Below, one piece after another: positions 18,708-27,363 of a DNA stretch of 64,000 nt. The position numbers were made by a program, and so were the translations under genes. Location of the stretch: the NCBI GenBank assembly GCA_016182185.1, contig JACOXU010000001.1, positions 530,915 through 594,914 of the forward strand, in the 5' to 3' direction. Positions within the stretch are counted from its first letter, which is position 1, and each line of letters opens with the position of its first letter. The notes beneath the pieces are model-generated. The model was not told the origin of the DNA, made no database searches, and saw only the letters and a program-made list of their open reading frames with translations. The DNA is from Candidatus Levyibacteriota bacterium. GTDB taxonomy: Bacteria; Patescibacteriota; Microgenomatia; Levybacterales; UBA12049.

Positions 18708-19268
18708 TTACGGCTTGATTACTAATGATGCGGAAATGACCAAAAAAATCCCGATTGAATTTAAAATAAAGGAGACAATTAAAAACTGATAAGTTTTCAT
18801 CTTGGAAATTCCCATAAGACTTACTCCAATCTCATCAGGGAGAGGCGAGGCAACAATAATTGCTCCAACAACAGGCAAAGTCCAGCTGAAATATTTCGAG
18901 TGAAGTAATTTGGTGAAATGGTGATCCCCGTCGACATGATTATAGATAGAAACTATCTCATCCGTTAGGCTATCTTTGATAAATCTGAAAATTGTAACAT
19001 CACCTACCACTGCTCCCAGTCCGGCAACAAGACCTATTTCAATCGGGTTTAGGCTTTCTGACAAAACAAGAAGTATAATTGCTCCTGTTCCAACTGTAAA
19101 TGTAGAAACAAATAAAATCCCTCCAATAAATGCCCCGAGATAACCCAATGACCCCAGTCCCAGCAAAAAAGAATGGAAGATTTCAAGTCTTGAAATAAAG
19201 ACAGCAAAAGCTACACCAACCCCTGTTAAGATCAAATTTTTATATCGCAGATGAAGTTTATGATTCAT
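18708..19268 (-). CDS. hypothetical polytopic membrane protein
   Basis: 186 aa. Gly-rich TM helices (LGLGSLGYLGAFIGGILFV...). No known motif. Confidence 0.45.
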   Translation of the reverse strand: MNHKLHLRYKNLILTGVGVAFAVFISRLEIFHSFLLGLGSLGYLGAFIGGILFVSTFTVGTGAIILLVLSESLNPIEIGLVAGLGAVVGDVTIFRFIKDSLTDEIVSIYNHVDGDHHFTKLLHSKYFSWTLPVVGAIIVASPLPDEIGVSLMGISKMKTYQFLIVSFILNSIGIFLVISASLVIKP

Positions 19269-19351
19269 TTGTCTTTTTAATAATCTTACAAGGAAATTAT
19301 AGCAAAATTTTCATATTTGCTTTTCAGGATAGTCTAATCTATACTTAGCGG

Positions 19352-19873
19352 GTGAATTCCCTAAAATTTTCTTTGGTAATCATTATAGCCTTAGGAGTTA
19401 TAGGTTTAGCATTTATTTACAAAAATAGCTCTCAGGTTTTACCTTCTTCTCAAAAAAATTTTCCTACCCCTACCCCTTCTGCAGAGCCGTCTGTCTGGTT
19501 AACGCCTCTTCCATCTTCGCCAGTTTCTCCAACTCAACCGGCACAATCCGGAAACGGCAACCCCTGTTCGCCTTCAGAAAATTTCCTGTACAATGAGCCT
19601 GGGCGTGCATGGAATTGCGTTTCAAAGACTACTGGGGCTCAAATTGCCTGTTTTGCCCTGGGAGATTCACGTCTTAGCATTAATTCTGCTTCTCCAACAG
19701 GCTGGTGGTGTCAGCTTTCGCTCCAGGTTGAAACCGGGGTTTGTCCTGAAGGGGAAAACTGTGATTGGATGCCCGATAGCTTTACCTATGGAGACCGATC
19801 AAATCAAGAAGACTCATCAGTTATTTACACATGTTTTCGAGGAAGCCCCAACAACTGTCGTAAGGATAAGTAG
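19352..19873 (+). CDS. secreted cysteine-rich protein with PT-rich linker (GTG start)
   Basis: Signal anchor, PTPTPSAEPSVWLTPLPSSPVSPTQP linker, then a 10-Cys domain. An in-frame TAG stop lies two codons upstream of the GTG, so this is the only possible start. Confidence 0.4.
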   Translation: MNSLKFSLVIIIALGVIGLAFIYKNSSQVLPSSQKNFPTPTPSAEPSVWLTPLPSSPVSPTQPAQSGNGNPCSPSENFLYNEPGRAWNCVSKTTGAQIACFALGDSRLSINSASPTGWWCQLSLQVETGVCPEGENCDWMPDSFTYGDRSNQEDSSVIYTCFRGSPNNCRKDK

Positions 19874-19901
19874 CGTCCGCGCGGACTTACCACTTAATGT
19901 T

Positions 19902-20147
19902 TTAGGCCATTGCGCCCATTTTAATATCGCTTACGCCAAGTGCTTCAACTACCTTATCGGGACTGTCATATTTTCCTTCAGGCAACGTCTCCTTGAACCA
20001 TTTTTTGTCTGCTTCTGAGAAATCCGAAAGCTCATTGCATTCCTCGACCAACTCATCCTTTGTTGCCGGATAAGATTGATGGCTCTTCAAATGATCAATC
20101 ATGTTTTTTATGTCCACTCTCATCACCTCCTTTTTTGACTTAAACAC
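19902..20147 (-). CDS. DUF2795 family protein
   Basis: 81 aa. HLKSHQSYPATKDELVEECNELSDFSEADKKWFKETLPEGKYDSPDKVVEAL matches the DUF2795 pattern (YPAxKxELxxxAxxxGAxxEVxxxLxxLPDxxYxSPxxV). Confidence 0.6.
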   Translation of the reverse strand: MFKSKKEVMRVDIKNMIDHLKSHQSYPATKDELVEECNELSDFSEADKKWFKETLPEGKYDSPDKVVEALGVSDIKMGAMA

Positions 20148-20221
20148 TTTACCCCAACGCCAGTAGTAAGTACTCTATAAATCGGTAAGAAGACTGTAAG
20201 AAGGACATCACATCCTATTTT

Positions 20222-20650
20222 CTACATATTGGTCGGCTGGAGCATACCGACCATATTTCCTTCGGTGTCTTTAAACATGACAAATTGCCCAATATCTGGA
20301 ATGTCCATTGGTTTTCCCTGAATTTTTCCGCCTGATTTTTTCACGGTTTCCATATGTTTTTTAAGATTATCTACCGAAATTACGATATGAGGAATCTTAC
20401 CTTCAGGTCCCCATTGAAAAAATCCGCCGTTTATAGCGCCCTTCTTTTTATGCATCCTGTTTTTATCCAAAGGCGTTGTGGTAGCCAAAAGATAGCTACC
20501 CATATCTTTTCCAAGCTGAGTCATTTCCCAACCAAAGACAGTTTCGTAGAATTTCTTTGTACGTTTTTTGTCCCGGGCGGGCATTTCAAAATGTACTACC
20601 GGATTCATTGGCATTTTAATCACCTCCTTATCCTTCTGCTGCTTTTTCAA
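20222..20650 (-). CDS. VOC-family (glyoxalase/bleomycin-resistance fold) protein
   Basis: PVVHFEMPARDKKRTKKFYETVFGWEM ... GGKIQGKPMDIPDIGQFVMFKDTEGNMVGMLQP is the typical beta-alpha-beta-beta-beta VOC module. Confidence 0.7.
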   Translation of the reverse strand: MKKQQKDKEVIKMPMNPVVHFEMPARDKKRTKKFYETVFGWEMTQLGKDMGSYLLATTTPLDKNRMHKKKGAINGGFFQWGPEGKIPHIVISVDNLKKHMETVKKSGGKIQGKPMDIPDIGQFVMFKDTEGNMVGMLQPTNM

Positions 20651-20782
20651 GATCAGAGATTACTAGCTTTTTCATTTTAAGAAATGCCGCAGTTACACGC
20701 TCTGCATAATATCTTATCTGGAGTTAAAGTTTAGCAAAGATTATGAAAGAAATAAATGCAGAAAATTGTAAGAAAATGTATT

Positions 20783-21364
20783 CTATTTTCTTCTCTCCCT
20801 TACTATCCCGATGCGCTTGTTTTGGGCAGTCATTCTAACCAAATAATCAAGCGCTTTCTTATACATTTCCGGTCTGTGTCTTTTTCGGCTTTCAATATAG
20901 GCAATTCTGATTCTCTGATAAGATGAAGACATTTTTTGAAAATTCTCCCAGGCATTTTTCTCTTTCTTTAATGCCCTTGAAATCTCAGAAGGAATTACAA
21001 AGGTTTCGTCGTTATCTTTTTGCGGATCATAAACATGGGCAAGTGCGGCAAGTCCTGCCTTTGTCATCTTTCTTTCTTTGATAAGCTGGCGGATGCGTTC
21101 TTTATTCATTTGGGATAACTCACTTGTGGATTTTCGGGGAGAGAAGCGTTGAGCAAAACTTTCATCATCAACTTTTTTGACAATGCTATCTATCCAGCCA
21201 AAGCAAAGAGCTTCCAAAACTGAATCATCGTACGAGATACGAGCCTTGCCGGTTTCTTTTCGATAGAATATGAGCCAAATTTCAGGCTCCTTTTTGTAAT
21301 TCTTTGACAGCCACAAACGCCACTCCTTCCTGCTTGTGACATAAAGTGTCTTCCCAATCTTCAT
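20783..21364 (-). CDS. YdeI/OmpD-associated (DUF1801-like) family protein
   Basis: YDDSVLEALCFGWIDSIVKKVDDESFAQRFSPRKSTS matches the YdeI/OmdA core. Confidence 0.65.
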   Translation of the reverse strand: MKIGKTLYVTSRKEWRLWLSKNYKKEPEIWLIFYRKETGKARISYDDSVLEALCFGWIDSIVKKVDDESFAQRFSPRKSTSELSQMNKERIRQLIKERKMTKAGLAALAHVYDPQKDNDETFVIPSEISRALKKEKNAWENFQKMSSSYQRIRIAYIESRKRHRPEMYKKALDYLVRMTAQNKRIGIVRERRK

Positions 21365-21376
21365 GAGGAGATTATA

Positions 21377-21850
21377 TCAGAGCCATCGGCGTACTTGCTT
21401 CTTGTAGCTTAGCCATTTCTTGCCGAACTTTCGCTCTAATTGTTTTTCCTCTTTTCTAATCATAAAATCAGTTAAGAAAAAGGTTATAGCTGTAATAAAA
21501 ATTCCGCTTGGTGATCCAAAAAGCAAAGTTGCCCCGAAAAAAATAAATACATTTCCGCCAAGATAGAGCGGGTTTCTTGAAAAGCGATAGGGGCCTGAGG
21601 TGATAAGTTTATTCTGGGGAGCAAGTGAGATTACTTTCATCTTATGCTGGTAAAAGTGAAACGTCGCCCAGACTCGCAGGAGGAACCCAACTGTTAAAGA
21701 CAATAATCCGGCCGAAGTTGCCAGAGGGGATCTGAAGTTGCTTATTCCAAAAAGAAAATCCAGCTTTGTTCCGAGAAAGACAATAATCAATCCTACTATT
21801 ATTACACCAATATTGTGGAGCAGACTTTTGAGAAGATTTCTCAACATCAT
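21377..21850 (-). CDS. isoprenylcysteine carboxyl methyltransferase / phospholipid methyltransferase family membrane protein
   Basis: 4-TM protein with YRFSRNPLYLGGNVFIFFG (RNPxY motif) and a C-terminal EE..L...FG region. Confidence 0.65.
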   Translation of the reverse strand: MMLRNLLKSLLHNIGVIIVGLIIVFLGTKLDFLFGISNFRSPLATSAGLLSLTVGFLLRVWATFHFYQHKMKVISLAPQNKLITSGPYRFSRNPLYLGGNVFIFFGATLLFGSPSGIFITAITFFLTDFMIRKEEKQLERKFGKKWLSYKKQVRRWL

Positions 21851-21857
21851 CTATCTC

Positions 21858-22328
21858 TTACTCGTACTTTATTTCTATGTTATCGCCATCGTGCATCATA
21901 TAGTTTTCGAAGTCTTTACTCTCACTTCCATTTACCAGCATTTTTACTGTTCCTTCAGAGCCGTTTGTTTCGTCAAATAATGTGTTTGAACTAAATTGTT
22001 TGTTCCAGATTCGGAAGAAATTTCCAAGCTTGGTCTCATCTTTTGCAACTACACCCTGCATTTCCATATGCACAACTCCGCTCTTATAATCTTCTACATG
22101 TGTGTGCATTGGCTGATGGACCGCTCCTAAGCCAATATTGTCAGTAAATTCTTGCTTTTTTCCTTTTATGTAAACTGTAAGTCTTGGATGCCAATGCAGA
22201 CCGTTACGGGAAACAACATCAGCTTCAGGTACGGTTTCTTCACTCTTGGACAAGAAAAATATTCCGCCAATAAAAATAATGATTGTGACAAGAATTACAC
22301 CGCCTATTACTTTTACTTCTGTAGTCAT
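21858..22328 (-). CDS. hypothetical membrane-anchored protein
   Basis: 156 aa. N-terminal TM then a soluble domain with His-rich segments (HQPMHTHVEDYKSGVVHMEMQG). No family recognised. Confidence 0.4.
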   Translation of the reverse strand: MTTEVKVIGGVILVTIIIFIGGIFFLSKSEETVPEADVVSRNGLHWHPRLTVYIKGKKQEFTDNIGLGAVHQPMHTHVEDYKSGVVHMEMQGVVAKDETKLGNFFRIWNKQFSSNTLFDETNGSEGTVKMLVNGSESKDFENYMMHDGDNIEIKYE

Positions 22329-22549
22329 ATCTCAAATGTTTCAGAACCTATTATACAGGAAACAACCTTTGTTGCAATAAGGAGGAATAGTTAATCATTT
22401 ACTTCTTAGCGAAAAACGAAAAAGTAAATGGCCAAAAGTATGAAAACTATTAAGAGCAGTCCCAGGTTCTTATTCTCCTGGAATAGTCCTTTCTTTTTTG
22501 CCATAAAAATATCATTTCAAAAAGAAAAAAATTTGTCAATAAGAGAGTC

Positions 22550-22578
22550 TTTATTTTTGTAGGCGCGCATGCTAAAAT
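22550..22578 (+). promoter_or_regulatory. putative sigma-70 promoter of tRNA-Asn (TTTATT-17 nt-TGcTAAAAT)
   Basis: -35-like TTTATT at 22550-22555 and extended -10 tgcTAAAAT ending at 22578, with a 17-nt spacer. The tRNA begins 44 nt downstream. Confidence 0.35.
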
Positions 22579-22621
22579 AGCTTCACAATTAAAGATTGAT
22601 TGAGAGGGTCGAGAATTTAGC

Positions 22622-22696
22622 TCCTCTGTAGCTCAGCGGTAGAGCAATCGCCTGTTAAGCGATGGGTCGGAGGTTCGAATCCTCCCGGAGGAGCCA
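22622..22696 (+). tRNA. tRNA-Asn (anticodon GTT), CCA encoded
   Basis: Folded by hand. Acceptor TCCTCTG/CGGAGGA (one G-U pair), D-arm GCTC-AGCGGTA-GAGC, anticodon stem ATCGC/GCGAT, loop cTGTTAa, T-arm GGAGG-TTCGAAT-CCTCC, discriminator G, CCA. The 5' end is identical to E. coli tRNA-Asn (UCCUCUGUAG...). Confidence 0.9.
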
Positions 22697-22799
22697 AGTT
22701 CTCGACAAAAGAATTTCAACCGAGGATAGTTTATCCTGAACGGAGTCGAAGGAAATCCTCGCGAGGGAGCCCAAATTCGTTAGTATAGCCTTCATCTTT

Positions 22800-23378
22800 A
22801 TGAGTTGGCAATCTTGGCAACATCTAGGAAATTTAAGTCCCAGACAATTTGTCTGTGGATTTTGTAGTGATAAAGTTGGTGCCCACATGGGTTACCATAA
22901 CAGCCATAATGGTCACTTAATTTATATCTGTCCAAATTGTGGAGCTCCTACCTATTTTGTTGGTAACATCCAGCATCCCGGAGCAATAATTGGTAGGAGT
23001 ATAAAGAATCTTCCGGAGGATGTTAATGAAGTTTATAGAGAAATCAGAGAATCTGTACAAAACGCTTGCTATACCGCAGCAGTGCTTTTGGGAAGAAAGC
23101 TATTGATGCATATAGCAGTTGATATTGCAAAAGCTAAAGAAGGAAACTCATTTGTTAGTTATATAGACCATTTGAGTAAATCCGGTTACATTCCACCACA
23201 TGGTGGCAAGTGGCTAACTTTTGTTAAAGATATAGGGAATGAAAAAAATCATGAATTAAAAATTGGAGAAAAAGATGAGTCGGAAAAAATACTAAAATTC
23301 ATAGAAGTTCTATTAATATTCATTTATGAGTTCCCAAATGAATTACCCGACGAAGAGGTCGCTACTCCAACAACATAA
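22800..23378 (+). CDS. Zn-ribbon plus DUF4145 (HEPN-like) domain protein
   Basis: N-terminal CxxC...CxxC ribbon (CGFCSDKV ... CPNCGAP). C-terminal EDVNEVYREIRESVQNACYTAAVLLGRKLLMHIAVDIA...IDHLSKSGYIPPHGGKWLTFVKDIGNEKNHE...ILKFIEVLLIFIYEFP follows the DUF4145 consensus including the (R/K)xxGNxxxHE motif. This domain is usually found fused to restriction or abortive-infection proteins. Confidence 0.6.
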   Translation: MSWQSWQHLGNLSPRQFVCGFCSDKVGAHMGYHNSHNGHLIYICPNCGAPTYFVGNIQHPGAIIGRSIKNLPEDVNEVYREIRESVQNACYTAAVLLGRKLLMHIAVDIAKAKEGNSFVSYIDHLSKSGYIPPHGGKWLTFVKDIGNEKNHELKIGEKDESEKILKFIEVLLIFIYEFPNELPDEEVATPTT

Positions 23379-23386
23379 TTGACAAT

Positions 23387-23926
23387 ATGAAAGTCTCCCA
23401 TATTTCAGAAAAGGAGAGGATTAATCTTTACAAGATTGCAATAGCTCACAATGATGTCACCGAAGCATTATTTACAATACGATTATTTTTAAAAACTGTT
23501 AATGACATACGAGATCCTAACTTTCAGCCCCTTCAAGATGCAATTGTTATCGCATACGCAAGACCTTTTACGGAAAATCGGCCGTATGGACCTTTAGATA
23601 GAAAGTGGGGGATGTTCAGTGGCCATGGGATGCAAAGATTGCACGAGTTGCTTGTAGATACGAGAAATACTTTGATTGCGCATAGTGACAAGTTGTATCG
23701 AAAGGTGCAAATAATTCCTGATGGAACATCAACTGTTCCAGGCTTACCGACAACAAAAGGTCTTGGAATTACAGTAGGAACGAAGAAAATTGCTATAGAT
23801 ATGTTTCCTCGGATCGAAGCGTTATGCCTAGACTTAGGAGGAAGGCTAGATACTGAAATGTTTGATTTACTTGATAGTCTTTATGGAGACAAAGAACTAC
23901 CCTCAGAGCCATTCGACTTGGTATAG
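23387..23926 (+). CDS. hypothetical protein, partner of the DUF4145 gene
   Basis: 179 aa. Begins 9 nt after the upstream stop (operon). No recognisable motif. Confidence 0.45.
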   Translation: MKVSHISEKERINLYKIAIAHNDVTEALFTIRLFLKTVNDIRDPNFQPLQDAIVIAYARPFTENRPYGPLDRKWGMFSGHGMQRLHELLVDTRNTLIAHSDKLYRKVQIIPDGTSTVPGLPTTKGLGITVGTKKIAIDMFPRIEALCLDLGGRLDTEMFDLLDSLYGDKELPSEPFDLV

Positions 23927-24104
23927 AGTAATCGTTTTATTTCCTTCCACCTTTCCCTCAATTGTCCAATCCAACCTGGATTTTCGAAAGCCTCAATTAT
24001 GTTCACCATTTCAGGTATACTGTGCCAAGGTGAGCGGAGTTACGGATTTCTTCGTTTTTCTTCGGATTTTTATAACCCCGGTTAATTTGTGATAACCTTA
24101 AATA

Positions 24105-24827
24105 ATGGAAGTATTATTTTTAATCGCAGCTTTTTTTTCTGAAATAGTTGGAACAGTGGCTGGATTTGGTTCTTCTACAGTATTCTTACCTCTTGCTTTA
24201 CTCTTTTTCGATTTCAAGACCGCCTTGGTGCTAGCTGCTCTACTTCATATCTTTGGCAATATAGGAAGAATTAGCTTTTTCAAGCATGGACTTGACAAAC
24301 ACATGCTTCTGATTTTTGGCATTCCAAGCGTAGTGCTAACTCTTATAGGAGCTTTATTGGTGTCATATCTTCCGCAAGACATACTCAAAGGTATTTTGGG
24401 TATATTTCTTGTTATATATGCAGGTATTTCTTTTTGGAAAGAAGATTTAAAAGTAAAACCATCATTATTCAAGTCGATCTTAGGAGGAGGACTTTCAGGT
24501 TTTCTTGCAGGTTTAATTGGCACTGGCGGTGCTTTAAGGGGAGCATTCTTAACAGCGTTTGGGTTACCAAAAGAAAAATATATCGCGACAGCTGCTGCAA
24601 TAGCGTTGGCAGTTGATATAACGAGAATTCCCTTCTACTTTGCAGGAGGGTTTTTGAGTAGCCAGTATTATTGGTATATTCCGCTTTTACTCGTAATTGC
24701 ACTGGCAGGTTCTTTTGCAGGAAAACAGATTGTAAAGAGAGTTCCTCAAAAGAATTTTAAAAAAATTGTTTTGATAGCTATATTAGTAGTTGGTTTGAGG
24801 TTTATTTTTGATTGGATAATAGGGTAG
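24105..24827 (+). CDS. TauE/SafE (DUF81) family sulfite/anion exporter
   Basis: 240 aa, 7-8 TM. A duplicated GxGGG-type motif (VAGFGSSTVFLPL ... LIGTGGALRGAFL) is typical of TauE/SafE. Confidence 0.75.
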   Translation: MEVLFLIAAFFSEIVGTVAGFGSSTVFLPLALLFFDFKTALVLAALLHIFGNIGRISFFKHGLDKHMLLIFGIPSVVLTLIGALLVSYLPQDILKGILGIFLVIYAGISFWKEDLKVKPSLFKSILGGGLSGFLAGLIGTGGALRGAFLTAFGLPKEKYIATAAAIALAVDITRIPFYFAGGFLSSQYYWYIPLLLVIALAGSFAGKQIVKRVPQKNFKKIVLIAILVVGLRFIFDWIIG

Positions 24828-24994
24828 GCTTATTTCAATAAGCTCACTGCTGGTGTATATTGTAACTTTTTTATTTCCAACCATCTCTATCGCATTTCAC
24901 CAATATAGCTTAGGTTTTTGAAAAGCGTGTATAATGTTGTCAAATTAAGCCTGATTTACCGGTATAGTAATCCAAGGCTCGCGGAACTGAATTC

Positions 24995-26092
24995 CTAATC
25001 TTTGACATCGATTTTTTCTAAATCCTCATCTTTATCTGAAATTTTTATGGTTTTTATTTTGGGTTTTCTGAAATTAAGATAAATAAATACACCTGCGAAG
25101 GCAAAGACCAGTCCCCAAATCAAAACCAGAATACCTAAGTTTTTTGCAGTCAAACCACCTATTAAAGTTTTTTCCGGTTTTTTGGTCGGGGTTGTTTGAG
25201 ATGTTTGAGAAATCCCGGTGGGAGGAACCGGAGTGTTTATAACCGTTTCTTCATTTACTTGACCATTAATATTTTCTTGCTGAACTATTGGAGCCAGAGT
25301 AGGAGCAGAAGTTGGAACCTTAGTCGGTACTCCTGTCGGAGCAGGTGTTGGCGTAGGAGTTGCGCTTTGACCTGCTACGACGGCAAGTTCATTGGAACTG
25401 GCTCCTGCGCTGCAGCCATTCATAGCTTTGACCACAAAATAATAGGTCACTCCAGGTGAGAGATACCCAATTGTGTAATTGTCTTGCTTTCCTACATTGG
25501 GATTCCCATAAATATAATTGCCTGATGAAAGTCCATAGGACACTACATAATAAGAAACAGGATCAGAAACCGTAGTCCAGGTAAGTTTAACCTGGCTTGA
25601 ACTTGGAGAAGTTGCGGAAGATAATGTTGGGGCTCCGGGCACTGCATCTCCGCAACTTGGACTGGTGAAATTAACACTTGCTTGACTTAGGGAAACATTT
25701 ACATCAAGATCTTTGATGTTGAATTTATCAGTTTGGACACTATTTGATTTGACCGTAAAGGTTGCAACATTGGCCGCATTACTATCATGACCCGTGGTCA
25801 CCGTAAGACTGGTCGTTCCTTTAGCGTTCCCATTTATTATAAGATTGGAATCTGTTCCCACAAGTGATATTTCCACCCTGTGGTTATTCACAGGACCGGG
25901 TGTTGATGCATCATCGAGAAGTTTCACTGTAATTTTTGACGTGCTCGTTCCATTGGCAGGAACAGATGAAGGCTCAACCGTAACAGTCGAATTGGACGCA
26001 CTCAAGGCCGCATAGGAAGACCTAGGAAAAATAAAGTTTGAAATAGAATAAAAAAGTATAATTAAAAATAAAAAGATTTTTTTCTCTAGCAT
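24995..26092 (-). CDS. surface protein with Ig/fibronectin-III-like domains, PT-rich stalk and C-terminal TM anchor
   Basis: Signal peptide and beta-sandwich domains (an FN3-like WTTVSDPVSYYVVSY). ATPTPTPAPTGVPTKVPTSAPT linker. C-terminal hydrophobic helix plus a basic tail (LIWGLVFAFAGVFIYLNFRKPK). Confidence 0.5.
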   Translation of the reverse strand: MLEKKIFLFLIILFYSISNFIFPRSSYAALSASNSTVTVEPSSVPANGTSTSKITVKLLDDASTPGPVNNHRVEISLVGTDSNLIINGNAKGTTSLTVTTGHDSNAANVATFTVKSNSVQTDKFNIKDLDVNVSLSQASVNFTSPSCGDAVPGAPTLSSATSPSSSQVKLTWTTVSDPVSYYVVSYGLSSGNYIYGNPNVGKQDNYTIGYLSPGVTYYFVVKAMNGCSAGASSNELAVVAGQSATPTPTPAPTGVPTKVPTSAPTLAPIVQQENINGQVNEETVINTPVPPTGISQTSQTTPTKKPEKTLIGGLTAKNLGILVLIWGLVFAFAGVFIYLNFRKPKIKTIKISDKDEDLEKIDVKD

Positions 26093-26169
26093 TTATCCTC
26101 CGCAGTTTAATTATTACACTTTTGTCCTATTAACTTCCACATGCTGTATAATATATAGTATAGTCAGAA

Positions 26170-27363
26170 GTGAATATTTTAGGGAAAATAAATTTACAAA
26201 AAATAATCTCACTCCTCAGGTCCGCCGCTTTTAAGCCGTTGGTTATAATACTCGCACTTCTAGTAATTTTTATCTATCAATATTTCGCAAGTGTTTCAAA
26301 TCTCAATAACAAGATCGGAGATTTGAGGAACAGGAATTCTTCTCTTGAAACAAAAATCAAAAATATCAATAATGAACTTACCGAACTTAAAAATCAGGAC
26401 CAGTATAAAATTAACGAAGATCTTAAAAACAATATTAAAAATATCGAAAACTCCTATAAATCCGCTCTTGAGTCTTACAAGAAGATTCTTGATCTTCGTG
26501 TTCAAAAAGCAAAGACTGCGGATTTGGAAAACCAATTCGCCAAAGTTTTAAATTATTTATCAACTCTTAACTATTCATCGGCGAGCGCGGATCTTAAACT
26601 CTTATCGGAAAATATTAAAAAGGTAGAAGACAGTCTGGTTGTAGTACAGACTACCAGTTTCACTGATGCACCGGTAAGCAATTCTCCCCCGGGTAGCGGA
26701 TTTTCCCAACAAAAAGTCTCAACAGAAAAAGGGGAATTTTTGGTTTCAATTGTTGCCGCTGATCTTAATTCAACGCATGTAATCGTAGATACAGCATCAG
26801 ACGGTGACTGCCGTGATAACTGCCCTGTTCTTCCACTTGCAACCTACATAGCAAGAAGCGGGGGTTTTGCCGGAATAAACGGATCATATTTCTGTCCAGC
26901 TGATTATCCGAGTTGCGCGGGTAAAGTAAATTCATTCGATACTTTACTTATGAACAAAAATAAAGTCTATTTCAATTCCGACAATAATGTCTATAGCAGC
27001 GTACCCTTGGTATACTTCACCGGAAACTCTATGGGTGTACGGGGCCGTTCTTCCGACTGGGGAAGAGACACAGGAGTCGACAGTGTAATTGCCATGCAGA
27101 CACTTCTTGTCTCAGGTGGTAATCCGACCGGAGCAGTAGGCGGCAAAGGAGCAAAAACTTTTATCGGAGCACGAGGAAGTACTGTTTATATAGGCATTGT
27201 TTATAACGCAACTTTTCAAGAGGCAGGTTTTGCCCTTAAGGCTCTGGGAATCGAAAATGCTTTAAATCTTGATCAGGGCGGATCAACCGCCCTTTGGTAC
27301 GGAGGCTACAAGGCGGGTCCGGGAAGAAATTTACCAAATGCGGTTATTTTGGTGAGAAAGTAA
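26170..27363 (+). CDS. membrane-anchored phosphodiester glycosidase (NAGPA/DUF2233) family protein with coiled-coil stalk
   Basis: N-terminal TM, an about 100-aa coiled coil, then FAGINGSYF ... LNLDQGGSTALW, which resemble the GINGGFF and LDGGGSS motifs of the phosphodiester glycosidase family. Confidence 0.6.
   Translation: MNILGKINLQKIISLLRSAAFKPLVIILALLVIFIYQYFASVSNLNNKIGDLRNRNSSLETKIKNINNELTELKNQDQYKINEDLKNNIKNIENSYKSALESYKKILDLRVQKAKTADLENQFAKVLNYLSTLNYSSASADLKLLSENIKKVEDSLVVVQTTSFTDAPVSNSPPGSGFSQQKVSTEKGEFLVSIVAADLNSTHVIVDTASDGDCRDNCPVLPLATYIARSGGFAGINGSYFCPADYPSCAGKVNSFDTLLMNKNKVYFNSDNNVYSSVPLVYFTGNSMGVRGRSSDWGRDTGVDSVIAMQTLLVSGGNPTGAVGGKGAKTFIGARGSTVYIGIVYNATFQEAGFALKALGIENALNLDQGGSTALWYGGYKAGPGRNLPNAVILVRK

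Follow-up and report, generated by a model that had tools for sequence, protein, structure and literature searches.

Results and Discussion

Gene Content of the tRNA-Asn Locus

The locus of interest lies in a window of 64,000 nucleotides, by which we mean the whole stretch of DNA analyzed here, and comprises a tRNA-Asn gene followed on the same strand by two short protein-coding genes, denoted ORF1 and ORF2 (Table 1). The tRNA-Asn(GTT) gene is the sole tRNA gene in the window, and an Rfam scan of the locus returned nothing besides it. ORF1 and ORF2 are separated by 8 nt, with no terminator-like site between them, promoter and terminator scans of the locus were unremarkable, and we infer that the two genes are probably co-transcribed here.

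An earlier reading of this DNA (the sequence-only reading) had described a tRNA-Asn gene followed by two same-strand genes, and this layout is borne out in coordinates, strand and spacing by ARAGORN, Rfam and the ORF calls. The same reading correctly recognized that ORF1 combines a CxxC..CxxC ribbon (C19, C22, C44 and C47) with a DUF4145 domain, the latter being matched above the curated Pfam cut-off, and that ORF2 is a protein of 179 aa of unknown family, in line with the lack of any significant match to it in Pfam, NCBIfam, PHROG or PADLOC. Because homologues of both proteins are numerous and each family possesses invariant residues, as discussed below, ORF1 and ORF2 are genuine genes under purifying selection. 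The genes that surround them cover mixed accessory functions, namely a glyoxalase, OmdA, a PEMT/ICMT-type methyltransferase, a TauE exporter, and fn3 and NAGPA surface proteins. A protein identical to ORF1 is on record from a Candidatus Levybacteria MAG.

Table 1. Positions (in the window), strand and supporting evidence for the features of the tRNA-Asn locus
Feature	Position	Strand	Evidence
tRNA-Asn (anticodon GTT, CCA encoded)	22622–22696	+	ARAGORN; Rfam tRNA, 71.1 bits, E = 4.6e-15
Degenerate direct copy of the tRNA 3′ part (T-arm, acceptor 3′ strand, trailer)	22744–22778	+	Local alignment
ORF1, 192 aa, RAZR/PD-T7-4-like, zinc ribbon and DUF4145/HEPN	22800–23378	+	Pfam, PADLOC, PHROG, profile, AF2
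ORF1 N-terminal Cys4 zinc-ribbon domain (residues 1–66), putative trigger sensor	22800–22997	+	
ORF1 active-site stretch K143...H151	23226–23252	+	Aligned to RAZR R146...H154
ORF2, 179 aa, unannotated family of ~180 aa, predicted HEPN-like (AbiU2-like) RNase	23387–23926	+	
ORF2 motif R93-N-T-L-I-A-H99 (R-[NHD]-x4-H)	23663–23683	+	Alignment of 71 sequences

Distant Homology of ORF1 to RAZR

The closest characterized system is PD-T7-4 from E. coli UMB1727, which was renamed RAZR (ring-activated zinc-finger RNase) in 2026 (Zhang et al., Nature 2026; PMC13017515). RAZR is an abortive-infection system made up of one gene, whose product joins an N-terminal Cys4 zinc ribbon to a C-terminal DUF4145 domain, the latter being a divergent HEPN RNase, and its defence function depends on the catalytic residues R146 and H154, with R146A abolishing defence (PMC13017515). 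The protein assembles as a 24-mer around ring-shaped phage proteins (the portal or the Erf-like Gp77), and once assembled cleaves single-stranded RNA non-specifically; its specificity is set by the zinc ribbon, which is the variable domain, and HEPN domains in general function as dimers (PMC13017515).

Several searches place ORF1 in this family. ORF1 matches Pfam DUF4145 (PF13643) with 31.5 bits against a curated cut-off of 23.1 (E = 1.9e-7) and the PADLOC PD-T7-4 model with E = 2.6e-7, this being the only PADLOC model matched, by 33 of 34 diverse members of the ORF1 family, for which we found at least 185 homologues. While a single-sequence phmmer search with ORF1 did not find the RAZR chain (PDB 9y9c), the family profile aligns with it colinearly (E = 0.0021, residues 15–173 on 10–175), placing K143 of ORF1 on R146 and H151 on H154. 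The AF2 model of ORF1 (pLDDT 91) shows a beta-rich ribbon with both CxxC pairs on beta-strand knuckles, followed by a helical domain, with K143 at the end of helix 136–145 and H151 in the loop after that helix. When this model was searched with Foldseek, the best PDB match was again 9y9c (probability 1.00), with HEPN toxins and Csm6 next in rank; we note, however, that this match has an identity of 17% and a TM-score of only 0.38–0.40.

The two proteins share their domain order (Cys4 zinc ribbon, then DUF4145/HEPN), a similar size (192 vs 219 aa for RAZR), an active-site stretch with conserved GN..H and identical x7 spacing, and an organization as a single gene, with no neighbour shared among the annotated contexts of the ORF1 family. 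In both, the zinc ribbon is the more variable domain, with an entropy of 2.01 bits compared to 1.42 bits for the HEPN domain in the ORF1 family. They differ in that their identity is only ~17%, in that ORF1 carries a lysine (K143) at the position of the catalytic Arg146 while keeping the catalytic histidine (H151), and in their hosts, a CPR bacterium (Levybacteria) in the case of ORF1 and a proteobacterium in the case of RAZR. RAZR (PD-T7-4) and ORF1 are distantly homologous, which makes ORF1 a new member, from CPR, of an established defence family. The sequence-only reading had described ORF1 as a standalone zinc-ribbon and HEPN-like (DUF4145) protein of defence type, and its proposal that the stretch KDIGNEKNHE (K143...H151) contains the active site proves correct in the family-profile alignment to R146 and H154 of RAZR.

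Family-wide conservation bears directly on the substitution at position 143. The four cysteines C19, C22, C44 and C47 are present in all family sequences that cover them (115–118 of 120), G146 and N147 are invariant, H151 is found in 119 of 120 sequences, and position 143 is occupied by R in 62, by K in 57 and by Q in one. The near-invariance of H151, G146 and N147, together with a basic residue at position 143 in every sequence save the one with glutamine, argues for a maintained active site in the ORF1 family.

Genomic Contexts of ORF1 Relatives

ORF1 relatives occupy diverse settings, including a Collierbacteria element that is flanked by two serine recombinases and has an Xre-type gene upstream, an accessory region of a Berkelbacteria genome, and a position downstream of proS. 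They are also present on 53 IMG/VR viral contigs and in two temperate-type phages, in the latter just upstream of the terminase genes. The phage-borne group is represented by phrog_1305, which ORF1 matches over its full length (E = 1e-24); its members, such as Lactobacillus phage KC5a orf31 and Terrisporobacter phage TVCOM_ph1 CDS0061, are solo genes and full-length homologues of ORF1 at ~36% identity (E = 1e-33 to 1e-34), whereas ORF1 lies on the chromosome, away from any phage genes.

As PHROGs labels this group “DNA binding protein”, ORF1 could in principle be a phage-derived zinc-ribbon nucleic-acid-binding regulator and no defence RNase, with the replacement of the catalytic arginine by K143 marking a loss of catalysis; the location of the phage relatives between regulatory genes and the terminase would be consistent with such a role. 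We consider this very unlikely. The label is an unverified annotation, and the conservation of H151, G146 and N147, together with a basic residue at position 143 in all sequences except the one with glutamine, speaks against the loss of catalysis. A gene position before the terminase also fits an accessory, moron-type phage gene. Finally, the characterized member of the family, RAZR, is an RNase that requires both R146 and H154 for defence (PMC13017515).

Returning to ORF1 as a RAZR-type effector, we infer its RNase activity, its trigger and its defence phenotype by analogy with RAZR. By this homology, the variable Cys4 zinc ribbon of ORF1 would sense large ring-shaped phage assemblies such as portals, and binding to the ring would bend inactive linear oligomers into a ring of their own, repositioning the HEPN (DUF4145) dimers and activating them. 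H151 and the basic K143 would then cleave single-stranded RNA non-specifically, such that translation would stop and the infection would be aborted.

ORF2 Represents a Candidate HEPN Family

In the case of ORF2, the evidence comes from the conservation within its family and from its predicted topology. Close homologues number 22 (55–91% identity), the sole named record among them being from a Microgenomates bacterium. An exhaustive profile search (E ≤ 1e-3) expands the family to 599 representative clusters at 50% identity, nearly all of which are standalone proteins of ~180 aa. A word-indexed profile search with ORF2 added no annotated relatives, and searches of phage records and of viral contigs with ORF2 gave no match.

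In an alignment of 71 members (25–47% identity), Y57, H86 and H99 are invariant, and R93, D23, R59, F61 and D101 are near-invariant. Two of these residues delimit an R...H motif, in which R93 is present in 70 of 71 sequences and H99 in all 71, with N, H or D at position 94 in 64 and an x5 spacing in 68. The AF2 model of ORF2 (pLDDT 78.5) is mainly helical (helices 8–37, 46–62, 72–75, 80–95 and 137–166), with the motif at the junction of predicted helix 80–95, third among the long helices, and the loop after it, and with a low-confidence hairpin (97–132) directly after the motif. The Rx4–6H active site of HEPN proteins lies at this same helix-end/loop position, with a polar N, D or H following the arginine (PMC3710099), and both the predicted location of the ORF2 motif and the polar residue after its arginine fit this published definition (PMC3710099).

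Among annotated families, HEPN_AbiU2 alone turns up repeatedly in the weak matches of the ORF2 family, being matched by 17 of the 71 members with a best E-value of 0.0021. All of these matches are sub-threshold: ORF2 itself scores 11.9 bits (E = 0.15) against a cut-off of 26.8 for PF18734, and the highest score, obtained in a scan of 10 proteins, is 15.8 bits against the same cut-off. The matches mostly cover one ~25-position part of the model: among eight proteins scanned individually, those of five members and of both family consensuses fall within profile positions ~107–140, with the exception of one longer match that begins at profile position 69.

Like AbiU2, the HEPN family (Pfam PF18734) of the Lactococcus abortive-infection system AbiU (Anantharaman et al. 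2013), the ORF2 family is mainly helical, is of similar size and carries a conserved R...H motif, and its recurring AbiU2 profile matches, while weak, are limited to one short part of the model. It differs from AbiU2 in that the matches are below the curated threshold and no PADLOC match is obtained, as well as in the predicted beta-hairpin insert after the motif and in the additional invariant residues Y57, R59 and H86.

An alternative assignment is that ORF2 is no HEPN protein and that its R...H pair is a feature of a different kind of helical enzyme or binding protein. PDB profile searches with ORF2 were empty, its model gave no significant fold match in the PDB or BFVD, no PADLOC family matches or recurs across the ORF2 family, and hhalign found nothing between the ORF2 family and the HEPN family of ORF1. 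Such an assignment could draw on this lack of significant similarity to HEPN proteins, in sequence as well as in fold, on the shortness and sub-threshold scores of the AbiU2 matches, and on H86, Y57 and R59, which are equally invariant and lie outside the canonical HEPN description. Set against this is the recurrence of AbiU2, and of no other family, among the weak matches. We regard the non-HEPN assignment as the less probable one, while giving it appreciable weight. The motif and the predicted topology argue instead for ORF2 as a predicted HEPN-fold, metal-independent RNase with an R93/H99 active site, and for its family as a candidate new, as yet unnamed, HEPN family. If so, ORF2 would act alone as a toxin or abortive-infection effector, with R93 and H99 supporting metal-independent RNA cleavage.

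ORF1 and ORF2 Are Not a Conserved Pair

The sequence-only reading had grouped the two genes as a plausible small defence or toxin–antitoxin-like module, in which ORF2 was the “unknown partner” of ORF1. Across the contexts that we inspected, this pairing does not hold up: no ORF2 relative was found near ORF1-family genes (0 of 60 loci), and no ORF1 relative near ORF2-family genes (0 of 13 loci). ORF2 relatives are instead found after a 104-aa and a 66-aa ORF close to toxin–antitoxin genes, overlapping the gene for a small membrane protein, between rpsJ and rplC, near a DUF4258/DUF2283 pair, and in further settings. The closest ORF1 relative, on contig L015, appears frameshifted, and an unrelated gene comes next. 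ORF1 and ORF2 occur together only here and in three further contigs, which come from the same population and the same groundwater study and have an identical arrangement. Conserved housekeeping synteny across the lineage, which the earlier reading had named as the pattern that would contradict it, was likewise not seen, as the other genomes show different, non-syntenic contexts.

Two sets of candidates considered during these comparisons were rejected. A 192-aa neighbour on contig L116, tried as a possible ORF1 relative, is a membrane protein without a profile match. The small overlapping ORFs near ORF2 genes, considered as possible antitoxins, have no evident resemblance to each other by eye (76 aa in the window, 66 aa on contigs L001 and L004).

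The known systems that most resemble a two-gene arrangement of this kind are the HEPN-MNT type II/VII pairs (such as PDB 5yep and 7ae6), in which a small HEPN RNase toxin is encoded in a two-gene operon, and the ORF1 model indeed has these HEPN toxins as structural neighbours. However, the neighbour of ORF1 is no nucleotidyltransferase antitoxin, and the pairing of ORF1 with ORF2 is not conserved.

A dedicated defence or toxin–antitoxin-like module, with ORF2 serving as antitoxin, regulator or co-effector, would account for the shared strand, the 8-nt gap, the lack of a terminator between the genes and the identical arrangement in the three further contigs of the same population, and hetero-association of two HEPN proteins is conceivable given that HEPN domains act as dimers (PMC13017515). 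Nevertheless, we give this reading very little credence: beyond that one population the two families do not co-occur at any of the 60 and 13 loci, RAZR functions as a single gene (PMC13017515), and ORF2 shows a catalytic-type motif of its own rather than antitoxin features, its HEPN signature (R93-N-x4-H99) being in fact the more canonical of the two. ORF1 and ORF2 are not a conserved module and are most likely two independent genes, although their 8-nt spacing and the stable order across the four contigs from this population would be compatible with a locally restricted functional link.

The tRNA-Asn Gene as a Possible Integration Site

The position of the two genes next to a tRNA gene raises the question of whether they arrived by integration, as the sequence-only reading had suggested. 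We found no anomaly in GC content or skew across ORF1 and ORF2 (GC of 0.361 and 0.393, respectively, compared to 0.376 for the window), no integrase or recombinase domain among the ten flanking ORFs scanned (18708–27363), and no direct or inverted repeats bracketing the two genes in a search of 22500–26500. Similarly, no copy of the tRNA 3′ end was found downstream of ORF2 in a search across the window, the similarity between the intergenic region 23927–24104 and the tRNA 3′ end is at chance level, and the repeat candidate near 24040 that had been put forward obtains a score of 16, which was equalled by 153 of 300 shuffles and is not above chance.

One significant repeat does exist, namely the degenerate copy of the tRNA 3′ part listed in Table 1. 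This element has a local alignment score of 30, compared to 15.1 ± 2.8 for shuffled sequences, a score that was reached by 0 of 500 and 1 of 300 shuffles in two runs, in addition to which there is a 16-mer match with 3 mismatches. However, the copy sits between tRNA-Asn and ORF1, such that ORF1 and ORF2 are not bracketed. The exact tRNA pattern had no match in genome contigs and a single one in metagenome contigs (L056, with 273 nt downstream only), where the identical tRNA is followed by the same degenerate element and the upstream flank differs. The element may be the scar of a former att site or else part of a trailer that has been conserved. A search based on the TauE neighbour recovered 37 loci, among which no other flanking gene is common and none has an adjacent tRNA-Asn, and neither this search nor that with the tRNA pattern found a syntenic relative showing an empty site.

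That ORF1 and ORF2 arrived in a small genomic islet, as cargo inserted at the 3′ end of tRNA-Asn, would be in keeping with their direct adjacency to this gene and with the significant degenerate copy, as well as with the evident mobility of both families, whose context differs in every genome, and with the ORF1 relatives on phages and recombinase-flanked elements. The copy, on the other hand, precedes ORF1 rather than bracketing the pair, and recurs in L056 next to a different upstream flank; no second repeat follows ORF2, the ten flanking ORFs lack an integrase or recombinase domain, the GC content equals that of the window, and no syntenic relative is available to show an empty site. We consider an islet of this kind improbable, and integration at tRNA-Asn is unsupported.

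Conclusions

The reading that we favor, and consider reasonably probable, is that of two independent single-gene HEPN-type modules that are adjacent to each other within a variable stretch of accessory genes in a Candidatus Levybacteria genome. Beyond this, we tentatively put forward a broader proposal, which we would describe as possible rather than probable: that ORF2 exemplifies an undescribed and widespread family of standalone HEPN-type RNases (~600 clusters at 50% identity), which would be mobile in CPR (Microgenomates) genomes and, with no cognate antitoxin, serve as effectors of the abortive-infection or toxin type encoded by a single gene, and that the CPR branch of RAZR, despite the substitution of Arg by Lys, would stay an active ring-triggered RNase.

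CPR/Patescibacteria have small genomes in which few defence systems are recognized. The sizeable RAZR-like branch in Levy-, Collier- and Berkelbacteria and in Firmicutes phages would extend the mechanism described in 2026 well beyond enterobacteria, and within the ORF1 family an Arg-to-Lys exchange in the active site occurs naturally. The “toxin plus partner” reading of the locus is corrected in that the adjacency of ORF1 and ORF2 does not amount to a system, and the ORF2 family provides a concrete, unannotated lead toward a possible new HEPN effector.

Sequence Elements around tRNA-Asn

The acceptor stem of tRNA-Asn is lengthened into both flanks by a 19-nt inverted repeat (89% complementary), and, as the flanking bases are also similar around the identical tRNA of L056, an unrelated metagenome contig, this repeat suggests an extended precursor helix. 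We note, furthermore, a degenerate direct copy of the 3' part of the tRNA, GTCGAAGGAAATCCTCGCGAGGGAGCCCAAATTC, 48 nt downstream of the gene, which is kept in L056 (reverse strand) approximately 30 nt past the tRNA, and which could be either the relic of an old att site or a conserved element with a trailer or processing role.

Genomic Contexts of ORF1, ORF2 and Neighboring Genes

The nearest relative of ORF1 (the zinc ribbon and DUF4145/HEPN protein), on contig L015 (75–90% identity), is recovered by tblastn as two overlapping pieces, and looks frameshifted or decaying. In a Collierbacteria genome (L009), the ORF1 homologue directly follows an Xre-type HTH gene and is flanked by two large serine recombinase genes, a region that looks like tandem integrated elements.

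A homologue of ORF2 (predicted HEPN-like; 79% identity) lies, in a CPR genome (L017/L016), between rpsJ (S10) and rplC (L3), followed by two small unknown ORFs, so that the EF-Tu/S10 ribosomal-protein gene order, otherwise conserved, is broken there. Adjoining ORF2 in the window is a TauE/SafE exporter gene, with 70–82% identity among many CPR lineages (Gottesman-, Davies-, Woese-, Ames-, Curtiss- and Levybacteria; L019–L050); the window and these loci have no flanking genes in common. Such a distribution suggests that the gene is unusually strongly conserved or has spread horizontally.

Finally, a glyoxalase/bleomycin-resistance-type gene is present in three unrelated contexts at most a few kb from a gene of the ORF1 or ORF2 family, and may be a marker of the same type of variable accessory region.

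Coordinates of the features discussed
Feature	Sequence	Position
Inverted repeat arms	window	22608–22626 / 22688–22706
Degenerate tRNA-Asn copy	window	22744–22778
Corresponding tRNA-Asn part	window	22665–22701
ORF1 relative	L015	128–689
Serine recombinase genes	L009	62–1672; 6679–8268
ORF2 homologue	L017	3534–4076
ORF2 homologue	L016	366–908
TauE/SafE exporter	window	24105–24827
Glyoxalase-type gene	window	20222–20650
Glyoxalase-type gene	L011	3792–4169
Glyoxalase-type gene	L115	2723–3103
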